Shown here piece after piece: positions 2,957 to 58,511 of a stretch of DNA of 64,000 bases. The position numbers and the translations under genes are program-made. How positions within the stretch are numbered: the first letter of the stretch is position 1; each line of letters begins with the position of its first letter. The notes below the pieces were generated by a model, which made no database searches, was not told the origin of the DNA, and saw only the letters and a program-made list of their open reading frames with translations. The DNA comes from Candidatus Moraniibacteriota bacterium (GTDB lineage Bacteria; Patescibacteriota; Minisyncoccia; Moranbacterales; UBA1568), in contig JBPOIA010000003.1 in assembly GCA_052034975.1 (NCBI GenBank), positions 49,251 through 113,250 on the forward strand, read 5' to 3'.

Positions 2957-2961
2957 CCGAT

Positions 2962-3327
2962 ATGGCATTGTTTGATAAAACAACCGAAGAGAAGAAAGAG
3001 CAGGCTGTGAAGCCGGCAGCGGGAAGAGAGAGCGTGCTGGCAAACCGGCTGCTTTCCCGTCCGCGCATTACCGAAAAGGCATATGCCTTGAATGCGTTAA
3101 ATCAATACGTGTTTGAGGTAGCGAAGAGCGCCAATAAGAAATCCGTGAAGCGCGCCGTGGAAGAAGCCTATGGTGTGACCGTGGAAGCGGTGAATATCGT
3201 ACGTCTCCCGGCAAAGAAGCATTTTACCGGACGGAACCGAACGCTTGGATTTAAGAGTGCGACCAAGAAAGCTGTCGTGACGGTTTCGAAGGGGCAATCA
3301 ATCGAGCTTTTCAAGGGCGGTATCTAA
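2962..3327 (+). CDS. rplW: 50S ribosomal protein L23
   Basis: MALFDK..ITEKAYALNALNQYVFEVAKSANKKSVKRAVEEAYGVTVEAVNIV. The ATG at 2962 is internal to ORF 2932-3327. Confidence 0.9.
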   Translation: MALFDKTTEEKKEQAVKPAAGRESVLANRLLSRPRITEKAYALNALNQYVFEVAKSANKKSVKRAVEEAYGVTVEAVNIVRLPAKKHFTGRNRTLGFKSATKKAVVTVSKGQSIELFKGGI

Positions 3328-26923: not shown

Positions 26924-27871
26924 ATGTATGATGTGATAATAATCGGCGGGGGACCGGGAGGAGTGGCGGCGGGCGTGTATGCGGCGCGCAAGCGGATGAA
27001 GACGCTCTTCATCACCGAAAGTTTCCAAAGCCAGTCGGCGGTGTCGGCGAGCATCGAGAATTGGATCGGTACGGTGACGATTCCGGGTTGGGAATTCGCC
27101 GCCGCACTCGAAAAACACCTGCGCGCGCAGGAGGGTATAGAAATCAATACCGGTGAAAAAGTGTCCGGTATCGAGAGGCTTCCCGAAGGCGGATTCGCCG
27201 TTTTGACGGATAGGGGTGGACGTTCCGAAACGAAAACGATCATTGTGGCATCGGGCGGGCGGCACCGGCATCTGGATGTTCCCGGTGAAGAGAAGTTCAA
27301 AGGTAAGGGCGTCGTGTATTGTTCAACCTGCGATGCGCCGTTTTTTCGTGACAAGAGAGTCGTCGTGGTGGGCGGCGGAAACGCGGGACTCGAAGCTGTG
27401 GAAGACTTGCTGCCGTATGCGAAAGAAATTGTCATTCTTGTTCGATCGGGAGAGCTCAAGGGTGATCCGGTAACCAAAGAGAAGGTTCTGGCTGATCCGA
27501 AAGTGAGCGTTGTCTTTTTCGGCCTGACGCAGGAAATTGTCGGTGAACAGAAAGTCGAAGGATTGCGATACGAAGACGCGCAAACCGGTGAAGAAAAAAC
27601 GATTCCGACGGACGGCGTGTTTGTGGAAATCGGTATGGTGCCGAACACGGAGTTTGTGAAAGGTCTGCTCGATACGAATGAGCGCGGGGAAATCAAAATC
27701 GATGGCAAGACGGCTGCGACATCCTGTTCGGGAATCTTCGCGACCGGAGATGCGACCGACGTGCCATACAAGCAGAACAATATTTCCGCCGGTTACGGTG
27801 TGGTCGCTGCCCTTTCGGCGTACGACCTTTTCCGAAAAGCGAAAATATCTGGCGGCATTGACAAGAGGTAG
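26924..27871 (+). CDS. trxB: Thioredoxin reductase-like FAD/NAD(P) disulfide oxidoreductase
   Basis: YDVIIIGGGPGGVAAGVYAAR. Redox motif VVYCSTCDAPFF (CxxC; canonical TrxR is CATC). Second Rossmann VVVVGGGNAGLEA. GIFATGD. Confidence 0.78.
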   Translation: MYDVIIIGGGPGGVAAGVYAARKRMKTLFITESFQSQSAVSASIENWIGTVTIPGWEFAAALEKHLRAQEGIEINTGEKVSGIERLPEGGFAVLTDRGGRSETKTIIVASGGRHRHLDVPGEEKFKGKGVVYCSTCDAPFFRDKRVVVVGGGNAGLEAVEDLLPYAKEIVILVRSGELKGDPVTKEKVLADPKVSVVFFGLTQEIVGEQKVEGLRYEDAQTGEEKTIPTDGVFVEIGMVPNTEFVKGLLDTNERGEIKIDGKTAATSCSGIFATGDATDVPYKQNNISAGYGVVAALSAYDLFRKAKISGGIDKR

Positions 27872-27886
27872 AAAAGATGCTATAAT
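27858..27886 (+). promoter_or_regulatory. Perfect consensus sigma70 promoter TTGACA-17-TATAAT embedded in the last codons of trxB
   Basis: TTGACA at 27858-27863, 17-nt spacer, TATAAT at 27881-27886. Predicted TSS about 27893, 12 nt before a terminator hairpin. Confidence 0.7.
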
Positions 27887-27904
27887 GGATAAAGAATGGA
27901 AAAA

Positions 27905-27944
27905 GCGGGTGGTCCCAAAAGAGGGAACACCCGCTTTCTTTTTC
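27905..27944 (+). terminator. Intrinsic terminator hairpin GCGGGTGGTCCC-AAAAGAG-GGGAACACCCGC followed by TTTCTTTTT
   Basis: 12-bp GC-rich stem plus U-tract. A second hairpin CCAAGCG-ATGGGGAC-GCTTGG follows at 27945-27966. Confidence 0.7.
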
Positions 27945-28077
27945 CAAGCGATGGGGACGCTTGGGGGAAGAAATGGTTCTTTAAAAGAAAAACAAAGACA
28001 AAAATACCAAGACTTTCGTCTGGAAAAATAAAGACAAGTCTCCTTGTCTTCGCCTCCCAGAGAGGCTTTTTGCAACA

Positions 28078-28111
28078 CCGTTGCTAGATAAACGATCAGC
28101 AACGGTTTTTT
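28078..28111 (+). terminator. Terminator-like hairpin CCGTTGCT-N12-AGCAACGG followed by TTTTTT, immediately upstream of murA
   Basis: 8-bp stem and T6 tract. Third hairpin in the 240-bp trxB-murA spacer. Confidence 0.6.
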
Positions 28112-28193
28112 GCTTGAAAAAAAGCCAGTTTTTGGCTACACTGAACGAGATGTTCGAGAAGGGATTTGTGATCCGTTTATGGAAGAAGAGTCT

Positions 28194-29456
28194 ATGGAAG
28201 CATTCGAAATCAAGGGTGGGAAGAAATTGCGAGGAATGATCGCGGTGTGCGGATCCAAGAATGCAGCGACGCCGATATTGGCCGCGACGCTTTTGACGAA
28301 AGAAACGTGTGTAATCTCCAATGTGCCGCGCATCGAGGATGTGTTTCGGATGCTGGAAATCCTTGAAAGTATGGGAGCGGAAGTAAAGTGGCGCGGCGCC
28401 CATACGGTCGCTATCACGGCGAACAATATCGATCCAGAGAAAGTGGATGTGTCGGCGGTGAAGAAACTCCGTTCTTCGATCCTGCTTCTCGGGCCGCTTG
28501 CGGCGCGTTTCAAAATATTTTCTCTGCATCATCCTGGCGGCTGTGTGATCGGCGCACGTCCGGTAGGTACGCATTTTGACGCGCTCGAAAAGCTTGGTGT
28601 GAAGAGCACCGAGAAAGAGAAAGCGTATCGAATTGACGCAAGGAAGCGTCGAGCGGCCGAAGTCGTCTTGCGCGAGATGTCCGTGACGGCGACGGAAAAT
28701 GCGATGATGCTCGCTATATTGTGTCCGGGAAAGACGGTCATCAAAATCGCGGCTGCTGAACCACACGTGGAAGACTTGGGAAAATTTCTCATTTCGATGG
28801 GAGCGCGAATCAATGGTTTGGGAACGCATACGCTCGAAATCACGGGTGTTCGTCGACTTTCTGGCACGAGGCACGCACTTATTCCGGATGCCAACGAAGC
28901 GGCAACGTTTCTTATCCTCGGCGCGGCGACGGGAAGCCCGATCACGGTCAGGAATGCTCGTGAAGAACATTTGGATTTGGTACTCGAAAAGCTCCGCGAA
29001 TTTGGCGCAGAATTTTCCATAACGAAAAATGCCATTACGGTTGTTCCGGCGAAAAAATTATCGGCGGTATCGAAGATCGACACGCGTCCGTATCCTGGTG
29101 TGCCGACCGATGTGCAGGCACCGTTCGGAGTGCTTGCGACGCAAGCTGCCGGCGAGACACTCGTGCACGATTCGCTCTTCGAAGGACGATTCAACTATGT
29201 GTCTGAATTGGAGAAAATGGGCGCCCAGGCGACGGTGCTTAATCCGCATCAAGTCGTCGTACAGGGGAAGACGCCGCTTCACGGAACGGTGATCAAGAGC
29301 TATGATTTGCGAGCTGGTGCGGCGCTTATCATCGCGGCGCTTGTGGCGCACGGAACGACGATCATCGAGGATATCTATCAGGTGGATCGTGGATATGAGC
29401 GGATAGAGGAGCGTTTGCAAAATATCGGTGCGAAGATACGACGGATACACATATGA
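28194..29456 (+). CDS. murA: UDP-N-acetylglucosamine 1-carboxyvinyltransferase
   Basis: MEAFEIKGGKKLRG..K22-like..PGGCVIGARPV..LRAGAAL. The ORF-track start at 28110 is a TTG inside a terminator hairpin. Candidate ATGs are 28179 and 28194. Confidence 0.88.
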   Translation: MEAFEIKGGKKLRGMIAVCGSKNAATPILAATLLTKETCVISNVPRIEDVFRMLEILESMGAEVKWRGAHTVAITANNIDPEKVDVSAVKKLRSSILLLGPLAARFKIFSLHHPGGCVIGARPVGTHFDALEKLGVKSTEKEKAYRIDARKRRAAEVVLREMSVTATENAMMLAILCPGKTVIKIAAAEPHVEDLGKFLISMGARINGLGTHTLEITGVRRLSGTRHALIPDANEAATFLILGAATGSPITVRNAREEHLDLVLEKLREFGAEFSITKNAITVVPAKKLSAVSKIDTRPYPGVPTDVQAPFGVLATQAAGETLVHDSLFEGRFNYVSELEKMGAQATVLNPHQVVVQGKTPLHGTVIKSYDLRAGAALIIAALVAHGTTIIEDIYQVDRGYERIEERLQNIGAKIRRIHI

Positions 29457-34833: not shown

Positions 34834-36726
34834 TTAATCTCCGGCAGCGGGGATGTAGTAGATGAAGAACGCATCGCCGGCCCGAGCGATCGGGGCATAA
34901 TCAGAGAGCCACGCGTAGGTCTGCTTGCCGGACGGATTCGGCTTATAGAGGCTTTCCTGGTAGAAGAATGCTGAAATAGCGTACCAACCGGGTTCAATCG
35001 GACGTTCGTCCCACCAGGGAATATACTTGTCGCCGAGGTAATAGGCTGGTTTTGAGCCGCCGAAGTAATCGACGCGGATTTTGTCGATTGCGGGATAGTC
35101 GGACAGGAGGCATTGATCGGTGGAAGTGGCGCCTCCTGTCGCGCAGCGGTTCTGATCGTCGATGAAGACCTTGAGATGTTTGAGGTCTTGTCCCCAATCG
35201 TAGTTCGAATCAGTGACGTATCGGTAACCTTCCGTATGCCCGCCTGCTGCGGCATTGAAGTACGAGAGATAGCTCGGGTATGAAAGGACCGGGATAGCGA
35301 TGAGCACGAACGAGAATCCGCCGACGATGAGAGAAAAAGCTTTTCGGGTAAGAGGATCGTTCTGATGTTTCAAGAAATCGAAGAGAGTCTTGGCGATGAG
35401 CATATACAGGAAAGGGAGAATCGGAAAGAGGTGTCGGAAGCCAATGGTCAGATTACCGGTAACGCTGACGTATGTGTAAAAGAGAATGAAGAAGACTGAG
35501 AGGTATTGAGCGATCCTGGACTGGAATGATTGGACGAGGAGGGAGAAGAAGGAAGAGGTTTTTACCGAGAGGACTTTGCTGATTCGATACAGGCCATAGC
35601 CGGCCGAGGCGAGGAGAAGAAAGAGGAACGGAAGGGTTTCTTTGAGGAGGAAGACGACCGGGAAGTAGAACATCGAGGCACGATCGGAAACAACGCCGAG
35701 AAAATAATGGACATTTCCGGAGGCGACACGCGCGAAGACCATCGCGACACCGAGGAAGTATTCCGAAAGCGGTTTGAGGAATCGTGAAGCGCTGGTATCG
35801 ACGACGAGCGTATGCGCGAAACGGGCCGGAAGATTGTTTTGGGAAAGATGCTGGTCAGCCAGTTCCACAAGCTTTTCTTCCGGCATATGGAGCGTATTCC
35901 AGGCATAGAGCGACCAAATGAGGGTGAAGCAGACGAGGATGCTTCCGGCATATCGGAAGAGATAGTTTAAAAGTGTTTGAAATTTGAAACGTGCGACGGA
36001 ACGCGTCTCGTAGGATGGTTTTTGTTTGGTCAAAGCGTACAACATCGTGAAGAGACCGAAAATGGGAAACAGGAGTACGGCGGAAAATTTCGTCAGCTCG
36101 GCAAGCCCAAGGAAGATGCCGGCGACGGCCATATTTCTCAGACTTGGATATTTGAGGAACCGGACAAAGAAATAGAAGGCGAAGAAAATGAATGCGGCGC
36201 TGCCAATATCGGTCGTGACGTAGTGGCTGTGTGCGATGATATTAGGATCAGTGACATAAAGAAGGGTTGCGAAAAGCCCGGCGAGCGTGCCACCGAGCTC
36301 GCGTGTCCAAAGGAAAATGCCGATACCGAGGAAAACGGCGATGAGCGTGATCGGCAAGCGTGACCACAGCAGAATGGCATCGGCATCGTTACAGGCCTTT
36401 TTTGGTTCGGTGCAGTTCAAGAAGAGATCGCCGAGCACCCATTGTTCGTTGATACCTTTGCGCCATTCCTTTGCCTTGTACGGAAAAGAGACGGAAAGGA
36501 ATTGGAGCGGGATGCCAGAGAGATCCTTGATGAGCGGCGGATGCTCCGGATTAAGGCGCATATCGGAGGCATCGACATACGTATAGGCCGCGGGAATATG
36601 GGCACGCTCATCGAATGTGGCGGATTCCTGGGAAGAGATGACGGTCGAAAGGATAAAAAATGCGAGTAGGAGGAGAGCGACGATTCGTGGTGCGCAGGTT
36701 CTGAGCGTATCCATAGAGGATTTCAT
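34834..36726 (-). CDS. GT-C fold membrane glycosyltransferase, GT39/PMT-like (phospholipid-carrier-dependent)
   Basis: N-terminal loop motif ATFDERAHIPAAYTYV..RLNPEHPPLIKDL is diagnostic for PMT/GT39-type enzymes. About 11 TM helices plus an extracytoplasmic C-terminal domain of about 180 aa. ATG overlaps the stop of the upstream gene (TAATG). Confidence 0.8.
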   Translation of the reverse strand: MKSSMDTLRTCAPRIVALLLLAFFILSTVISSQESATFDERAHIPAAYTYVDASDMRLNPEHPPLIKDLSGIPLQFLSVSFPYKAKEWRKGINEQWVLGDLFLNCTEPKKACNDADAILLWSRLPITLIAVFLGIGIFLWTRELGGTLAGLFATLLYVTDPNIIAHSHYVTTDIGSAAFIFFAFYFFVRFLKYPSLRNMAVAGIFLGLAELTKFSAVLLFPIFGLFTMLYALTKQKPSYETRSVARFKFQTLLNYLFRYAGSILVCFTLIWSLYAWNTLHMPEEKLVELADQHLSQNNLPARFAHTLVVDTSASRFLKPLSEYFLGVAMVFARVASGNVHYFLGVVSDRASMFYFPVVFLLKETLPFLFLLLASAGYGLYRISKVLSVKTSSFFSLLVQSFQSRIAQYLSVFFILFYTYVSVTGNLTIGFRHLFPILPFLYMLIAKTLFDFLKHQNDPLTRKAFSLIVGGFSFVLIAIPVLSYPSYLSYFNAAAGGHTEGYRYVTDSNYDWGQDLKHLKVFIDDQNRCATGGATSTDQCLLSDYPAIDKIRVDYFGGSKPAYYLGDKYIPWWDERPIEPGWYAISAFFYQESLYKPNPSGKQTYAWLSDYAPIARAGDAFFIYYIPAAGD

Positions 36727-38333
36727 TAAGGGAGACGGATAATTACGAAAGCGCTGTCGGTACCGGGTCGGAGGTCGATCGTCTCAGTACGAGTTCCCGG
36801 AGCTCTTTTGAGGATATTTCCGATGATCTGTTCATCCTGGGAGGCGAAGATGATGACACTGTTGCCTGTTTTGATGTTCACGTCGGAGTCCGGCAGGAGA
36901 TAGGTCAGATTCTCGACCCGGCCGGTCGTGAAAAAGACGATCGGTTGCACGTTGATCGGGAGGCGGTTACCGACAATTTTGCTCCGGTCAGTCGAAACGA
37001 CGTATTTGTGTGTTTCTTCCGGCAAAGAAAGGAGGTATTCGCTGATATTACGGTAGTTGAGATTGAATGATGACGCCTGGCTCGGGCTGTGGGCGAAAAA
37101 AACGAAGTATTTGACGATATTGAAGAGCGCGCTGATGCCGAAAAGGAGGATAAGGATCGAGATGAGTACGCCACGGACGATCGGTGTTGAGCGGAACGTC
37201 TTTCTTATGAGCCAAAGAGCGGGGAGTGTCGCGAAGAGAAAGACCGGCGTCTGGGTGCCGATGGCGCGGAGTGCGTGTGGCAAACCTTCGTTCGTAAGGA
37301 ATTCCGGCATCAGCATTACAAAGAACGACGCGAGCAAAAAGACGTTTCTTGCGAGGCGTGTGTCGCGGTCATTGTTGCGGAAACGTCGTCCGAGGAGAAG
37401 GACGGTCTGCCAGACGACGAAGAGGAATCCGGCCAGGAAAAGCGTTCCGACGACGGGGTCGAGGATCGGGTAGGGCGGGTAATTATGTCGCCAGTTTTGG
37501 TCGCCGAAGAAATTGTATTTGATGAGCGAGAGACCGAAGGTTTTACCGAGCGTGCCCCAGAAATCACCGTGGTTGACGGTTGGCGAGAAAATGGAGACCG
37601 CTGCCGAGCGCGAAGCGAAATCTTCCGGATGAGAGATGAAGAAATGATAGAGCATCGGGGAAGCAGCGACAAAGGCGGCGAAAACGAACACGAGTGCGTG
37701 TTTGAAATAGCGGCGCAAGAATTTCTCATAGGAAAGCATTAGCGCCGGCAAGAGGATGATAAGGATGAGCGGTGCGAGACGAAACGCGACGTAGGTATGC
37801 AGCCCGAAACCGAAGAAAAGTCCGCTCCAGAGGAAGTCTCGGAAACGTTGAGTGCGCAGGCCGCGGAAGAAGAAAAAGAACGAGAAGCTAAGCAGGAAAG
37901 AAGTCATAATCGCGCGGAAACCGATGCGCGAGAAGTTGATGGCCCAGAATGAGGTGGCGGTGATAAAAGCGGCGACGAGTCCCGCGGCGCGGCGTTTGAA
38001 GAGCTCGCTTGCGAGCAGATACAATCCGAGGACGGTCAGAGTGCCGAAGATGACGGACCAAAGTTTGAGGACGGGAACGGTCGGACCGAAGACTTTGAGC
38101 GCGAGCGCCTGCAGATTGATGAAAAGTCCTTCGCGGCCGTAATTGTTTTCGTAGAAGAGGAGGTAGTTTCCGGTCTCGTTGGCATACATCGCGTCGGCGG
38201 CATTGACGGCCTCATCGGGATACAAACCGCTCGGAATATTCGCGATATCATAGCTCCGGAGGAAAAGCGCGAGCAGCAAAAAAAACGCGAGAGCGGCCAG
38301 GGCGAGAGAGCGTGGCGTTTCGTTTTGAAACAT
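36726..38333 (-). CDS. GT-C fold membrane glycosyltransferase, ArnT/GT39-like
   Basis: SGLYPDEAVNAADAMY (DE motif loop) and multiple TM helices. Translationally coupled to the downstream GT-C paralogue. Confidence 0.75.
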   Translation of the reverse strand: MFQNETPRSLALAALAFFLLLALFLRSYDIANIPSGLYPDEAVNAADAMYANETGNYLLFYENNYGREGLFINLQALALKVFGPTVPVLKLWSVIFGTLTVLGLYLLASELFKRRAAGLVAAFITATSFWAINFSRIGFRAIMTSFLLSFSFFFFFRGLRTQRFRDFLWSGLFFGFGLHTYVAFRLAPLILIILLPALMLSYEKFLRRYFKHALVFVFAAFVAASPMLYHFFISHPEDFASRSAAVSIFSPTVNHGDFWGTLGKTFGLSLIKYNFFGDQNWRHNYPPYPILDPVVGTLFLAGFLFVVWQTVLLLGRRFRNNDRDTRLARNVFLLASFFVMLMPEFLTNEGLPHALRAIGTQTPVFLFATLPALWLIRKTFRSTPIVRGVLISILILLFGISALFNIVKYFVFFAHSPSQASSFNLNYRNISEYLLSLPEETHKYVVSTDRSKIVGNRLPINVQPIVFFTTGRVENLTYLLPDSDVNIKTGNSVIIFASQDEQIIGNILKRAPGTRTETIDLRPGTDSAFVIIRLP

Positions 38334-38407
38334 ACGTTTTTGTTTTCTGTTTCTTGTGTTAGAATTATAGCAAATGAGAAGCGTTTCCGAAAGTTAAGAT
38401 ACCTGGA

Positions 38408-58084: not shown

Positions 58085-58167
58085 GGGTAGGTGGCGGAGT
58101 GGTCAATCGCAGCTGACTGTAAATCAGCCGACTTCGGTCTACGGGGGTTCGAATCCCTCCCTGCCCA
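58085..58167 (+). tRNA. tRNA-Tyr (anticodon GUA), type II with long variable arm
   Basis: Acceptor GGGTAGG/CCTGCCC (one G-U), anticodon stem GCTGA/TCAGC with loop CTGTAAA, 14-nt variable arm, T-arm GGGGG-TTCGAAT-CCCTC, discriminator A. Confidence 0.85.
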
Positions 58168-58177
58168 CGAGAATAAA

Positions 58178-58219: not shown

Positions 58220-58243
58220 GAGGGAGGGATTCGAACGGGCAGG
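58220..58243 (+). repeat. Inverted partial copy of tRNA-Tyr T-arm/3' end (GAGGGAGGGATTCGAAC) followed by GGGCAGG, the complement of the tRNA-Tyr 3' acceptor strand
   Basis: Reverse complement GTTCGAATCCCTCCCTC matches tRNA-Tyr 58147-58162 at 16 of 17 positions. Confidence 0.6.
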
Positions 58244-58349: not shown

Positions 58350-58366
58350 AATCCCTCCCTGCCCAC
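58350..58366 (+). repeat. Direct 17-bp repeat of the tRNA-Tyr 3' end (AATCCCTCCCTGCCCAC)
   Basis: Identical to 58152-58168. Followed, like the tRNA copy, by a related AT-rich terminator hairpin and TTTTGTTTG-AG(G/T)..GGAGGGAT. Confidence 0.6.
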
Positions 58367-58511
58367 AGAAAGTAAAAAGTACCCTGCGGGGTATTTTTTA
58401 CTTTTGTTTGAGTTGGAGGGATGAAAAGGGCGATAGCTAGACTTTTTGTGAAAAAACGTTAGAATAAGAAAAGTCTCAACGAATAGTTGAGGCTCGTATT
58501 TTTGAAAATAA

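Follow-up and report, generated by a model that had tools for sequence, protein, structure and literature searches.

CrcZ and CrcY, which carry A-rich 'CA' motifs for Hfq/Crc, and CsrB and RsmZ, which act on CsrA, are bacterial small RNAs (sRNAs) that sequester proteins by repeated single-stranded motifs and are made from their own promoters. CpxQ, SroC, and DapZ, on the other hand, derive from the 3′ untranslated regions (UTRs) of mRNAs. Stable hairpins close to a strong promoter occur in the lambda pR'-tR' '6S' region, in the pyrG and pyrBI attenuators, and in the rrn and lambda nut leaders, and, as stabilisers, they lie at or near the 5′ end of the highly expressed Escherichia coli ompA and Bacillus subtilis aprE transcripts. 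The genomes of bacteria of the Candidate Phyla Radiation (CPR, or Patescibacteria) are tiny, and these bacteria cannot so far be cultured on their own. We know of very few regulatory RNAs, if any, that have been characterised in them. Here, we describe a locus in 64,000 nucleotides of DNA from a Candidatus Moraniibacteriota bacterium (contig JBPOIA010000003.1; hereafter, the window). The stretch in question, 27858-28111, separates trxB from murA. On balance, we favour reading it as a stand-alone non-coding RNA gene of ~220 nt that belongs to a family without an Rfam 15 match and is built from two conserved modules, a promoter-leader cassette and a structured body.

Conservation, strand, and coding potential

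The trxB-murA spacer was compared, by nhmmer and direct reading, across ~200 loci, which comprise 80 murA loci from species-representative genomes (oriented with murA on the + strand), 120 metagenome contigs picked by their promoter-hairpin pattern and not by murA, and the two closest relatives. The spacer is kept in many related loci. A candidate sRNA had been proposed here from the window sequence (the original prediction), and the comparison supports it: more than 25 Moranbacteria loci, at MurA identities of 67-84%, keep promoter, hairpins, and terminator as a unit in front of murA, with compensatory changes and no conserved open reading frame (ORF). In the closest relative, whose MurA is 84% identical, all elements are retained and the stem sequences are altered. 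Certain other trxB-murA spacers hold just a plain terminator and the murA promoter. The nearest MurA proteins belong to metagenome-assembled genomes of Candidatus Moranbacteria/Moraniibacteriota (Patescibacteria/CPR), and the RNA family seems, so far, to be confined to Candidatus Moranbacteria and close relatives. Two covariance models were used to follow its modules, R1 for the cassette, built from short-loop examples, and R2 for the body.

The interval 27890-28115 (226 nt) folds with -87.4 kcal/mol, compared with -54.3 ± 4.1 kcal/mol for shuffled sequences (z = -8.0). Because the minus strand of the same interval folds equally well, the strand was decided by means other than fold energy. The deciding feature is H3, a hairpin in the body (AAGACAAG-UCUC-CUUGUCUU; 28031-28050, + strand), whose recurrent G-U pairs (AAGGCAAG/CUUGUCUU) become A-C mismatches if read on the opposite strand. 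These pairs fit the + strand only, and the + strand is therefore the RNA strand.

H3 is also the best-supported helix of the family. It has 8 bp, a WUYC-type tetraloop, a purine-rich 5′ arm, and a pyrimidine-rich 3′ arm, and RNAalifold found it unguided. An alignment of related spacers had been suggested as a check for covarying stems; it finds the hairpins conserved and compensatory changes at all eight H3 pairs, with 94.8% pairing, in 27 distinct sequences aligned to R2. That alignment was fitted to R2, which favours pairing; a MAFFT-based comparison of 13 hand-cut sequences is free of this bias and gives 99% pairing, with double substitutions at 7 of the 8 pairs. The covariation score of H3 is 0.608, against 0.261 ± 0.024 in shuffled controls (reached by 0 of 500), and it falls to 0.21 or less when the partners are slid.

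Database searches returned no family for this RNA. Within 27000-29000, the best Rfam 15 match at E ≤ 10 was ncr1175 on the minus strand, with 22.5 bits (gathering threshold 60; E = 0.37). At the gathering threshold, the whole window yielded five tRNAs and nothing else, and seven homologous loci gave no match at E ≤ 0.5. The original prediction likewise recognised no known riboswitch class. Nothing relevant was found in the literature on sRNAs, leaders, or structured RNA motifs of CPR/Patescibacteria.

A 63-codon ORF (27896-28087) starts almost at the predicted transcription start, with its ATG 9 nt 3′ of the -10 element, and could specify a small basic protein. The 63-aa product has no Pfam match. 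Its ATG is missing in most relatives and, where present, differs in frame relative to the conserved CGGGUG; in the closest relative (L201), a GTG replaces ATG 27896 and a stop follows after four codons. Substitutions in the region track base-pairing, not codons. With no Pfam match and neither start nor frame conserved, the small protein was rejected, and we give it practically no weight. A leader-peptide (ribosome-mediated) attenuator was also discarded, as just a subset of the leaders has an ATG, and its frame is not constant.

The promoter and the 5′ domain

Transcription is predicted to start at ~27893 from a sigma-70-type promoter on the + strand (27858-27886), which consists of a -35 element TTGACA (27858-27863), a 17-nt spacer, and an extended -10 element TGcTATAAT (27878-27886). 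The original prediction rated this promoter the best in the window, and it is in fact the sole perfect TTGACA-17-TATAAT in the 64 kb, where 0.01 would be expected by chance. It overlaps the final codons of trxB and their stop, TAG 27869-27871; the trxB ORF (26924-27871) encodes a thioredoxin-reductase-like flavoprotein. Dozens of related loci have TGCTATAMT, with an upstream -35, at the equivalent place.

A further pattern was noticed in the cassettes. A -10-like hexamer (TAnnnT, TATAAG/A, or TACAAG) lies 1-8 nt past the true -10 in 21 of 45 distinct cassettes (for example in L014, L046, L064, L075, L081, and L113), against 9.2 ± 2.5 in shuffled sequences; the pattern was picked after looking, and the window has no strict match. 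Such a hexamer, which lies in the initially transcribed region, might represent either a sigma-dependent pause element or a tandem -10.

The predicted RNA begins with a purine-rich leader, AAGAAUGGAAAAA (27893-27904), defined by the RNAalifold consensus. It is followed by P1, the 'GGGUG' hairpin GCGGGUGGUCCC / GGGAACACCCGC (27905-27934), which emerges from the fold, from R1, and from reading of the relatives, and directly 3′ of P1 by a U-tract, UUUCUUUUU (27935-27943). The base of the P1 stem, NCGGGUG...CCCGN, is conserved in sequence, and its apical part ranges from 4 to ~60 nt. In the alignment, 92.6% of P1 cells are paired, and the helix is mostly invariant apart from its extension by leader:U-tract pairs. 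P1 and UUUCUUUUU (27905-27943) together have the form of an intrinsic terminator, a GC-rich stem-loop and then a U-run, at which termination is predicted. A prematurely terminated species of ~50 nt may be made.

According to the consensus fold, the same U-tract is wholly base-paired once the RNA is finished. The leader can pair with its first half, which extends the first hairpin to the predicted 5′ end, and these pairs show AU-to-GC changes in both directions. The U-tract is also the 5′ arm of P3 (27935-27973; UUUCUUUUUCCAAGCG / CGCUUGGGGGAAGAAA), a hairpin of 16 pairs that is specific to the sub-clade of the window and in which the tract pairs with GGGGGAAGAAA. Compensatory changes in P3 include the exchange of CCAAG/CUUGG and CCGAG/CUCGG, among others. 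The 5′ domain of the sub-clade folds into two abutting helices that consume the entire U-tract in the consensus fold, the first half paired with the purine leader and the second half, with the adjoining CC, paired with GGGGAAA. This arrangement is supported by compensatory changes.

Two readings of this hairpin at the DNA level were rejected. A palindromic operator is unlikely, given that the arms lie anywhere from 4 to ~60 nt apart. A generic terminator or an uptake-sequence-like repeat does not agree with a single GGGUG-hairpin/U-tract site in 64 kb; the GGGUG-hairpin pattern matches this site on both strands and has one unrelated match inside a coding region.

The body

The body follows in a fixed order, namely a GUUCUUUAAAA motif, a single-stranded (AAAAC)n tract, a variable H2, H3, H4, and an intrinsic terminator. 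The motif reads GGUUCUUUAAAAG in the window (27975-27987), with the family consensus G-Y-N-C-Y-U-U-U-R-A-A-A-A, and is kept in ~25 family members although its potential pairing partner is not. The A/C-rich tract AAAAGAAAAACAAAGACAAAAAUA (27983-28006), which corresponds to (AAAAC)n in relatives, is unpaired in the minimum-free-energy fold and predicted to be single-stranded. It is the most conserved part of the spacer alignment. H2 (CCAAGAC-UUUC-GUCUGG; 28007-28023) keeps its position, varies in sequence and length, and is missing from some relatives. H4 (GCCUC-CCAGA-GAGGC; 28052-28066) lies 0-1 nt 3′ of H3 and is always present as a hairpin of varying sequence; its alignment is out of register, and its support is the recurrence of the hairpin. 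The terminator T (CCGUUGCU...AGCAACGG followed by U6; 28078-28111) adjoins the -35 element of murA, and a GC-rich hairpin with a U-run stands at this position in the family members that were folded or read.

In the window, H4 with the following UUUUU (28052-28071; GCCUCCCAGAGAGGCUUUUU) has the look of a small terminator and contains a near match to the PyrR-binding consensus, neither of which is kept in relatives. H4 holds CCCAGAGAGGCU / CCAGAGAGGCU, and the consensus sought was the ARUCCAGAGAGGYU loop. A PyrR binding site was rejected as a coincidence, given this lack of conservation and the absence of such a match at E ≤ 10 in the Rfam scan, which was expected to include the PyrR binding-site model.

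The hairpins listed in the original prediction all exist. The hairpin and U-tract reported at 27905-27944 correspond to P1 and UUUCUUUUU, GACAAG-TCTC-CTTGTC lies within the 8-bp helix of H3, and the terminator-like stem with T6 at 28078-28111 is T. The second hairpin, reported at 27945-27966, is real and larger than described, since it forms part of the 16-pair helix that uses the U-tract. H2, H4, and the A/C-rich tract had been missed.

Genomic contexts of the cassette and the body

The cassette comprises the extended -10 promoter (TGCTATAMT) with its -35, a purine-rich leader of ~15-25 nt, the NCGGGUG...CCCGN hairpin, and UUUUCUUUUU. R1 recovers the cassette of the window (35.3 bits, E = 6e-5) and those of more than 20 murA-ascertained loci; its significant matches are all on the + strand, apart from weaker reverse-strand matches at the same sites. 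The cassette also heads protein-coding genes. Most often, in 12 loci, the gene behind it encodes a ~260-aa secreted CAP-domain protein (PF00188). Four loci have a member of a ~200-aa membrane-anchored family in this place, and others have small membrane proteins, a metallophosphoesterase (Metallophos), or further products. In the cassette-driven coding loci that were read, the start codon lies 6-33 nt past the U-tract (a few lie farther), behind an A/C-rich leader without a Shine-Dalgarno (SD) sequence. The gene upstream of the cassette is often, and not always, trxB, with the -35 within its last codons. A role of P1 as trxB terminator only was rejected on the grounds that the cassette also follows other genes and that the nearest upstream ORF in L199 is divergent.

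One metagenome contig, L158, carries two cassettes 2.5 kb apart (L158:523-577 and L158:3008-3064), which between them head a 798-aa repeat protein and a 209-aa membrane-anchored protein. The family of the latter is also found in L095, L100, and L115, has no Pfam match, and shares the conserved sequence 'KKES(N/D)WG...CFNYWGYRG'.

Cassette and body are combined in several ways. In the clade of the window, the cassette is followed directly by the body (the window, L201, L202, L002, L011, L012, L014, L021, L025, L072, L075-L077, L079, L080, L009, L018, L036, and L038, and the metagenome loci L090, L096, L101, L107, L124, L137, L149, L161, and L196). A CAP ORF lies between the two modules in the L015 clade (L015, L045, L051, L057, L064, L069, L070, and L182), L017, and L026. 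No promoter-like sequence was seen between the CAP stop codon and the body in these loci, where the CAP mRNA thus seems to have the body as its 3′ UTR. Other genes precede the body in L024 and L008. A simple terminator is all that follows the CAP gene in L029, L046, L085, and L129. Since the body follows the cassette without an ORF here and with a CAP ORF between them elsewhere, the transcript of the window corresponds to a coding-less version of an mRNA arrangement.

In L015, L064, L069, L057, L045, L051, L070, L017, L026, L024, and L008, where a CAP gene or some other gene stands before murA, R2 places the body in the intervening spacer, with E-values of 6e-5 to 0.25 at the expected body positions. 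Over 600 kb of cassette-ascertained metagenome contigs, R2 detects the body only in window-type loci (L137, L124, L096, L149, L161, and L101). Eight body-bearing loci were found via the cassette pattern and not via murA, and murA follows in all five whose contig is long enough. In L073, the body is not adjacent to murA.

Proposed function

The locus has its own promoter, its own terminator, a covarying structure, and no conserved ORF, as expected of a stand-alone sRNA gene, its transcription itself being predicted. From the consensus promoter, the transcript would be abundant. P1 would sit flush with the 5′ end, where it probably has a protective role and stops a fraction of transcripts early, at ~27943. 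Since no other terminator serves trxB, P1 probably also ends the trxB transcripts. The full RNA would come from polymerases that pass P1 and halt at 28111, and the halt would insulate murA. The A/C-rich tract would mimic the leaders at which SD-less initiation takes place, with no start codon behind it, and may thus serve in trans as a decoy for a leader-binding factor, in the manner of CrcZ or CsrB. Alternatively, the tract may be a base-pairing seed. Both roles are suggested by the position of an initiation-like tract without a start codon between stable hairpins. If the RNA is functional, a decoy (sponge) or seed role of the tract, argued by analogy, is the mechanism we prefer, though a tentative one that we would put at appreciably less than an even chance.

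Leaders of a similar style occur elsewhere in the window. A PMT_2-family glycosyltransferase gene (36726-38333, minus strand) is preceded at 38334-38375 by a -10 element, TGCTATAAT, and a 29-nt A/C-rich, SD-less leader, UCUAACACAAGAAACAGAAAACAAAAACGU-AUG, which resembles the A/C-rich tract of the RNA in style. In a crude survey of the whole window, an SD-like motif was present upstream of ~13 of 48 long ORFs, and many starts lie in an '...ACGT ATG' or '...CGT ATG' context. This pattern suggests that translation initiation in this organism is largely SD-independent.

Several points weigh against a stand-alone RNA gene with a role in trans. The start site, the abundance, and the efficiency of termination are all predicted. 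P1 with its U-tract looks like a strong terminator ~50 nt from the start and, if efficient, would leave little full-length RNA. As for a partner of the decoy or seed, tblastn probes for Hfq and CsrA, like those for NusB and Rho, found nothing in 1.3 Mb of fragments, a sample too small to be informative. In several lineages, the body would be only a 3′ UTR, and purely cis roles (stabilisation of the mRNA 3′ end, processing, or insulation) may therefore apply. Finally, H4, H2, and T are supported by the recurrence of hairpins rather than by formal covariation.

Relationship to murA and alternative explanations

The RNA is followed by murA (28194-29456, + strand; EPSP_synthase fold) and then by mreB. 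The start of murA is probably ATG 28194 (MEAFEIKGG...) and not 28179, because homologues are 420 aa long and align from query residue 4-6. Between T and this ATG, murA has its own promoter, TTGAAA-17-TACACT (28114-28142, + strand). The corresponding TTGAAn-17-TATACT is found in essentially all related loci, and its -10 lies mostly 7 nt before ATGGA (L001-L080, position ~2960-3003), a distance that implies a leaderless murA mRNA in most relatives. The promoter is independent of the RNA, being present also in genomes without it (L054, L055, L067, L068, L078, L016, members of L001-L010, and others). In the window, L201, and L002, an insertion separates the murA promoter from murA, and the leader in the window is 44 nt long. 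The leaderless position is taken there by an out-of-frame ATG (28150), which opens a 29-codon upstream ORF that overlaps the murA start.

The original prediction offered, beside an sRNA, an attenuator that controls murA-mreB. This attenuator or riboswitch-like leader would use regulated terminators at 27905-27943, 28052-28071, and 28078-28111, and read-through would set murA-mreB expression. In nearly all loci, those found via the cassette among them, murA does come right after the body; T adjoins the murA promoter; and a read-through mRNA could still be translated, because many genes here are SD-less. However, murA owns a conserved promoter that is placed for leaderless initiation and also serves genomes without the RNA, the cassette drives unrelated genes, and the body follows other genes as an apparent 3′ UTR and lies away from murA in L073. 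There is no Rfam match for an attenuator or riboswitch class, and no conserved antiterminator pairing or aptamer-type junction was noticed in the consensus folds or by inspection, with no systematic search made; the window sequence has a 5-bp GCAAC/GUUGC alternative pairing. With a promoter proper to murA and the element not specific to murA, the attenuator part of the original prediction is not supported, and we regard it as very unlikely. It is also very doubtful that read-through of T adds to murA expression. Another alternative is a relic. In this case, a CAP ORF would have been lost in the lineage of the window and its 5′ UTR fused to its 3′ UTR, with the parts kept in cis to terminate trxB, to stop a strong promoter, and to insulate murA, and the RNA would be functionless. 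The arrangements cassette-CAP-body-murA (L015 clade, L017, and L026) and cassette-CAP-terminator-murA (L029, L046, L085, and L129) speak for such a loss, and trxB has no terminator besides P1. Yet a relic promoter would be expected to decay, and the near-consensus promoter, the A/C-rich tract, and H3 are kept down to 67% MurA identity with compensatory substitutions. H3 has no U-tract and is therefore not a terminator, yet it is retained, and genomes that need termination and insulation alone achieve them with a single hairpin. We consider the relic unlikely, though worth keeping in mind. The same history can be combined with a function, in that an ORF-less version of the highly expressed CAP mRNA, reduced to its cassette-type 5′ UTR and its structured 3′ UTR, may have been kept as an abundant regulatory RNA. 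Its (AAAAC)n tract would mimic SD-less initiation regions and titrate a leader-binding factor (or its boxA-like motif would titrate Nus factors), and a regulon of envelope genes would thereby be coordinated. We judge this proposal distinctly unlikely in this specific form.

The conserved motif of the body also raises the option of a Nus-factor leader, in which a hairpin and GGUUCUUUAAAA would form an rrn-type boxB-boxA unit that loads NusB/NusE, on an untranslated transcript, either against Rho termination or for titration of Nus factors. Sequence conservation extends to the motif and not to its potential pairing partner, and the non-coding RNA carries the motif behind a hairpin and a very strong promoter. 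It resembles the boxA sequences of E. coli, lambda, and Bacillus (GCUCUUUAACAA, GCUCUUAAAAA, and GUUCUUUGAAAAC), and this resemblance is a lead only. The version in L124 reads GCUCUUUAAAAAC. boxA elements outside rRNA operons have been documented (PMC5725501, PMC7665894). A similar hairpin followed by GUAUUUUUGAAAA (58496-58508) precedes tRNA-Thr in the window. On the other side, the motif is U-then-A rich and of low complexity, with nine degenerate matches in the window, mostly at unrelated sites, against 2.9 expected. No rRNA gene occurs in the window or in any fetched locus, and there is thus no Moranbacteria rRNA leader for comparison. Moreover, antitermination has no obvious purpose on a short transcript with an intrinsic terminator at its end, and in the 3′ UTR contexts the motif lies past a coding region. 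We consider a Nus-factor role very unlikely. We retain a stand-alone non-coding RNA gene as the preferred reading of the locus.

The leader of the tRNA-Thr(GGU) gene (58440-58511) is of interest in itself. It has a purine-rich start, a hairpin UCUCAAC/GUUGAGG, and GUAUUUUUGAAAA just before the tRNA, a layout like that of the RNA 5′ end. This hints that untranslated genes here may generally carry a leader with a hairpin and a boxA-like motif. Nearby, past tRNA-Tyr (58085-58168), the tRNA 3′ end is partly repeated twice in the segment 58168-58375, once inverted (GAGGGAGGGATTCGAAC, ~58221-58237) and once in direct orientation (AATCCCTCCCTGCCCAC, ~58350-58366), each time near a terminator-like hairpin. 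These copies may be the scar of an integration event or what is left of a tRNA gene.

Implications

Small RNAs and UTR elements are an ordinary sight in bacteria, and the locus adds to them a new non-coding RNA family that is well delimited and supported by covariation. Its promoter-leader cassette is reused by a handful of probably highly expressed genes for envelope or secreted proteins. If the regulatory proposal is true, a small regulon of cassette-driven envelope genes would be coordinated by an RNA in a CPR bacterium. The natural series from cassette-ORF-body to cassette-body illustrates how an sRNA gene and mRNA UTRs can interconvert. The comparison also corrects a tempting and probably wrong 'murA attenuator' annotation in organisms in most of which murA is predicted to be leaderless.

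Comparison with known systems

Like CrcZ/CrcY and CsrB/RsmZ, the RNA described here has a strong promoter, its own terminator, and a repeated A-rich motif. Its AAAAC/AAAAAC copies fit A-R-N repeats and resemble sequences beside the mRNA start codons of the same organism. Unlike in CrcZ and CsrB, the motifs form one continuous tract and are not spread over loops, the RNA is much shorter, and the partner protein is only hypothetical. The likeness is a functional analogy and not homology, and no Rfam model matches the RNA.

The body in the L015 clade, L017, L026, L024, and L008 apparently shares the terminator of the upstream mRNA, as do the 3′ UTR-derived sRNAs CpxQ, SroC, and DapZ. In contrast to these, the body in the window has its own promoter, there is no sequence relationship, and processing and trans-activity are hypothetical here. 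The switch between 3′ UTR and stand-alone gene also differs, in that a whole ORF between UTR modules appears to have been gained or lost.

As in lambda pR'-tR' '6S' and the pyrG and pyrBI attenuators, a GC-rich hairpin and a U-run lie within ~50 nt of a strong promoter, and downstream sequence is reached only by read-through. Unlike in those systems, no Q-like factor, reiterative-transcription signal, leader peptide, or antiterminator helix was found. A structural role of the U-tract at the 5′ end is suggested instead, because both of its halves are paired in the mature fold. With the rrn and lambda nut leaders (boxB and boxA), the RNA shares the order of a strong promoter, a hairpin, and GYUCUUUAAAA on an untranslated RNA, whereas no rRNA lies downstream here and the motif is low in complexity.

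The E. coli ompA 5′ UTR and the B. subtilis aprE leader offer a further parallel, since here too a stable stem-loop at or near the predicted 5′ end is followed by an unstructured initiation region. Such stabilisers are not usually conserved in sequence from one unrelated gene to another. In contrast, NCGGGUG...CCCGUUUUCUUUU is kept here across different downstream genes, and this conservation hints at a specific partner.

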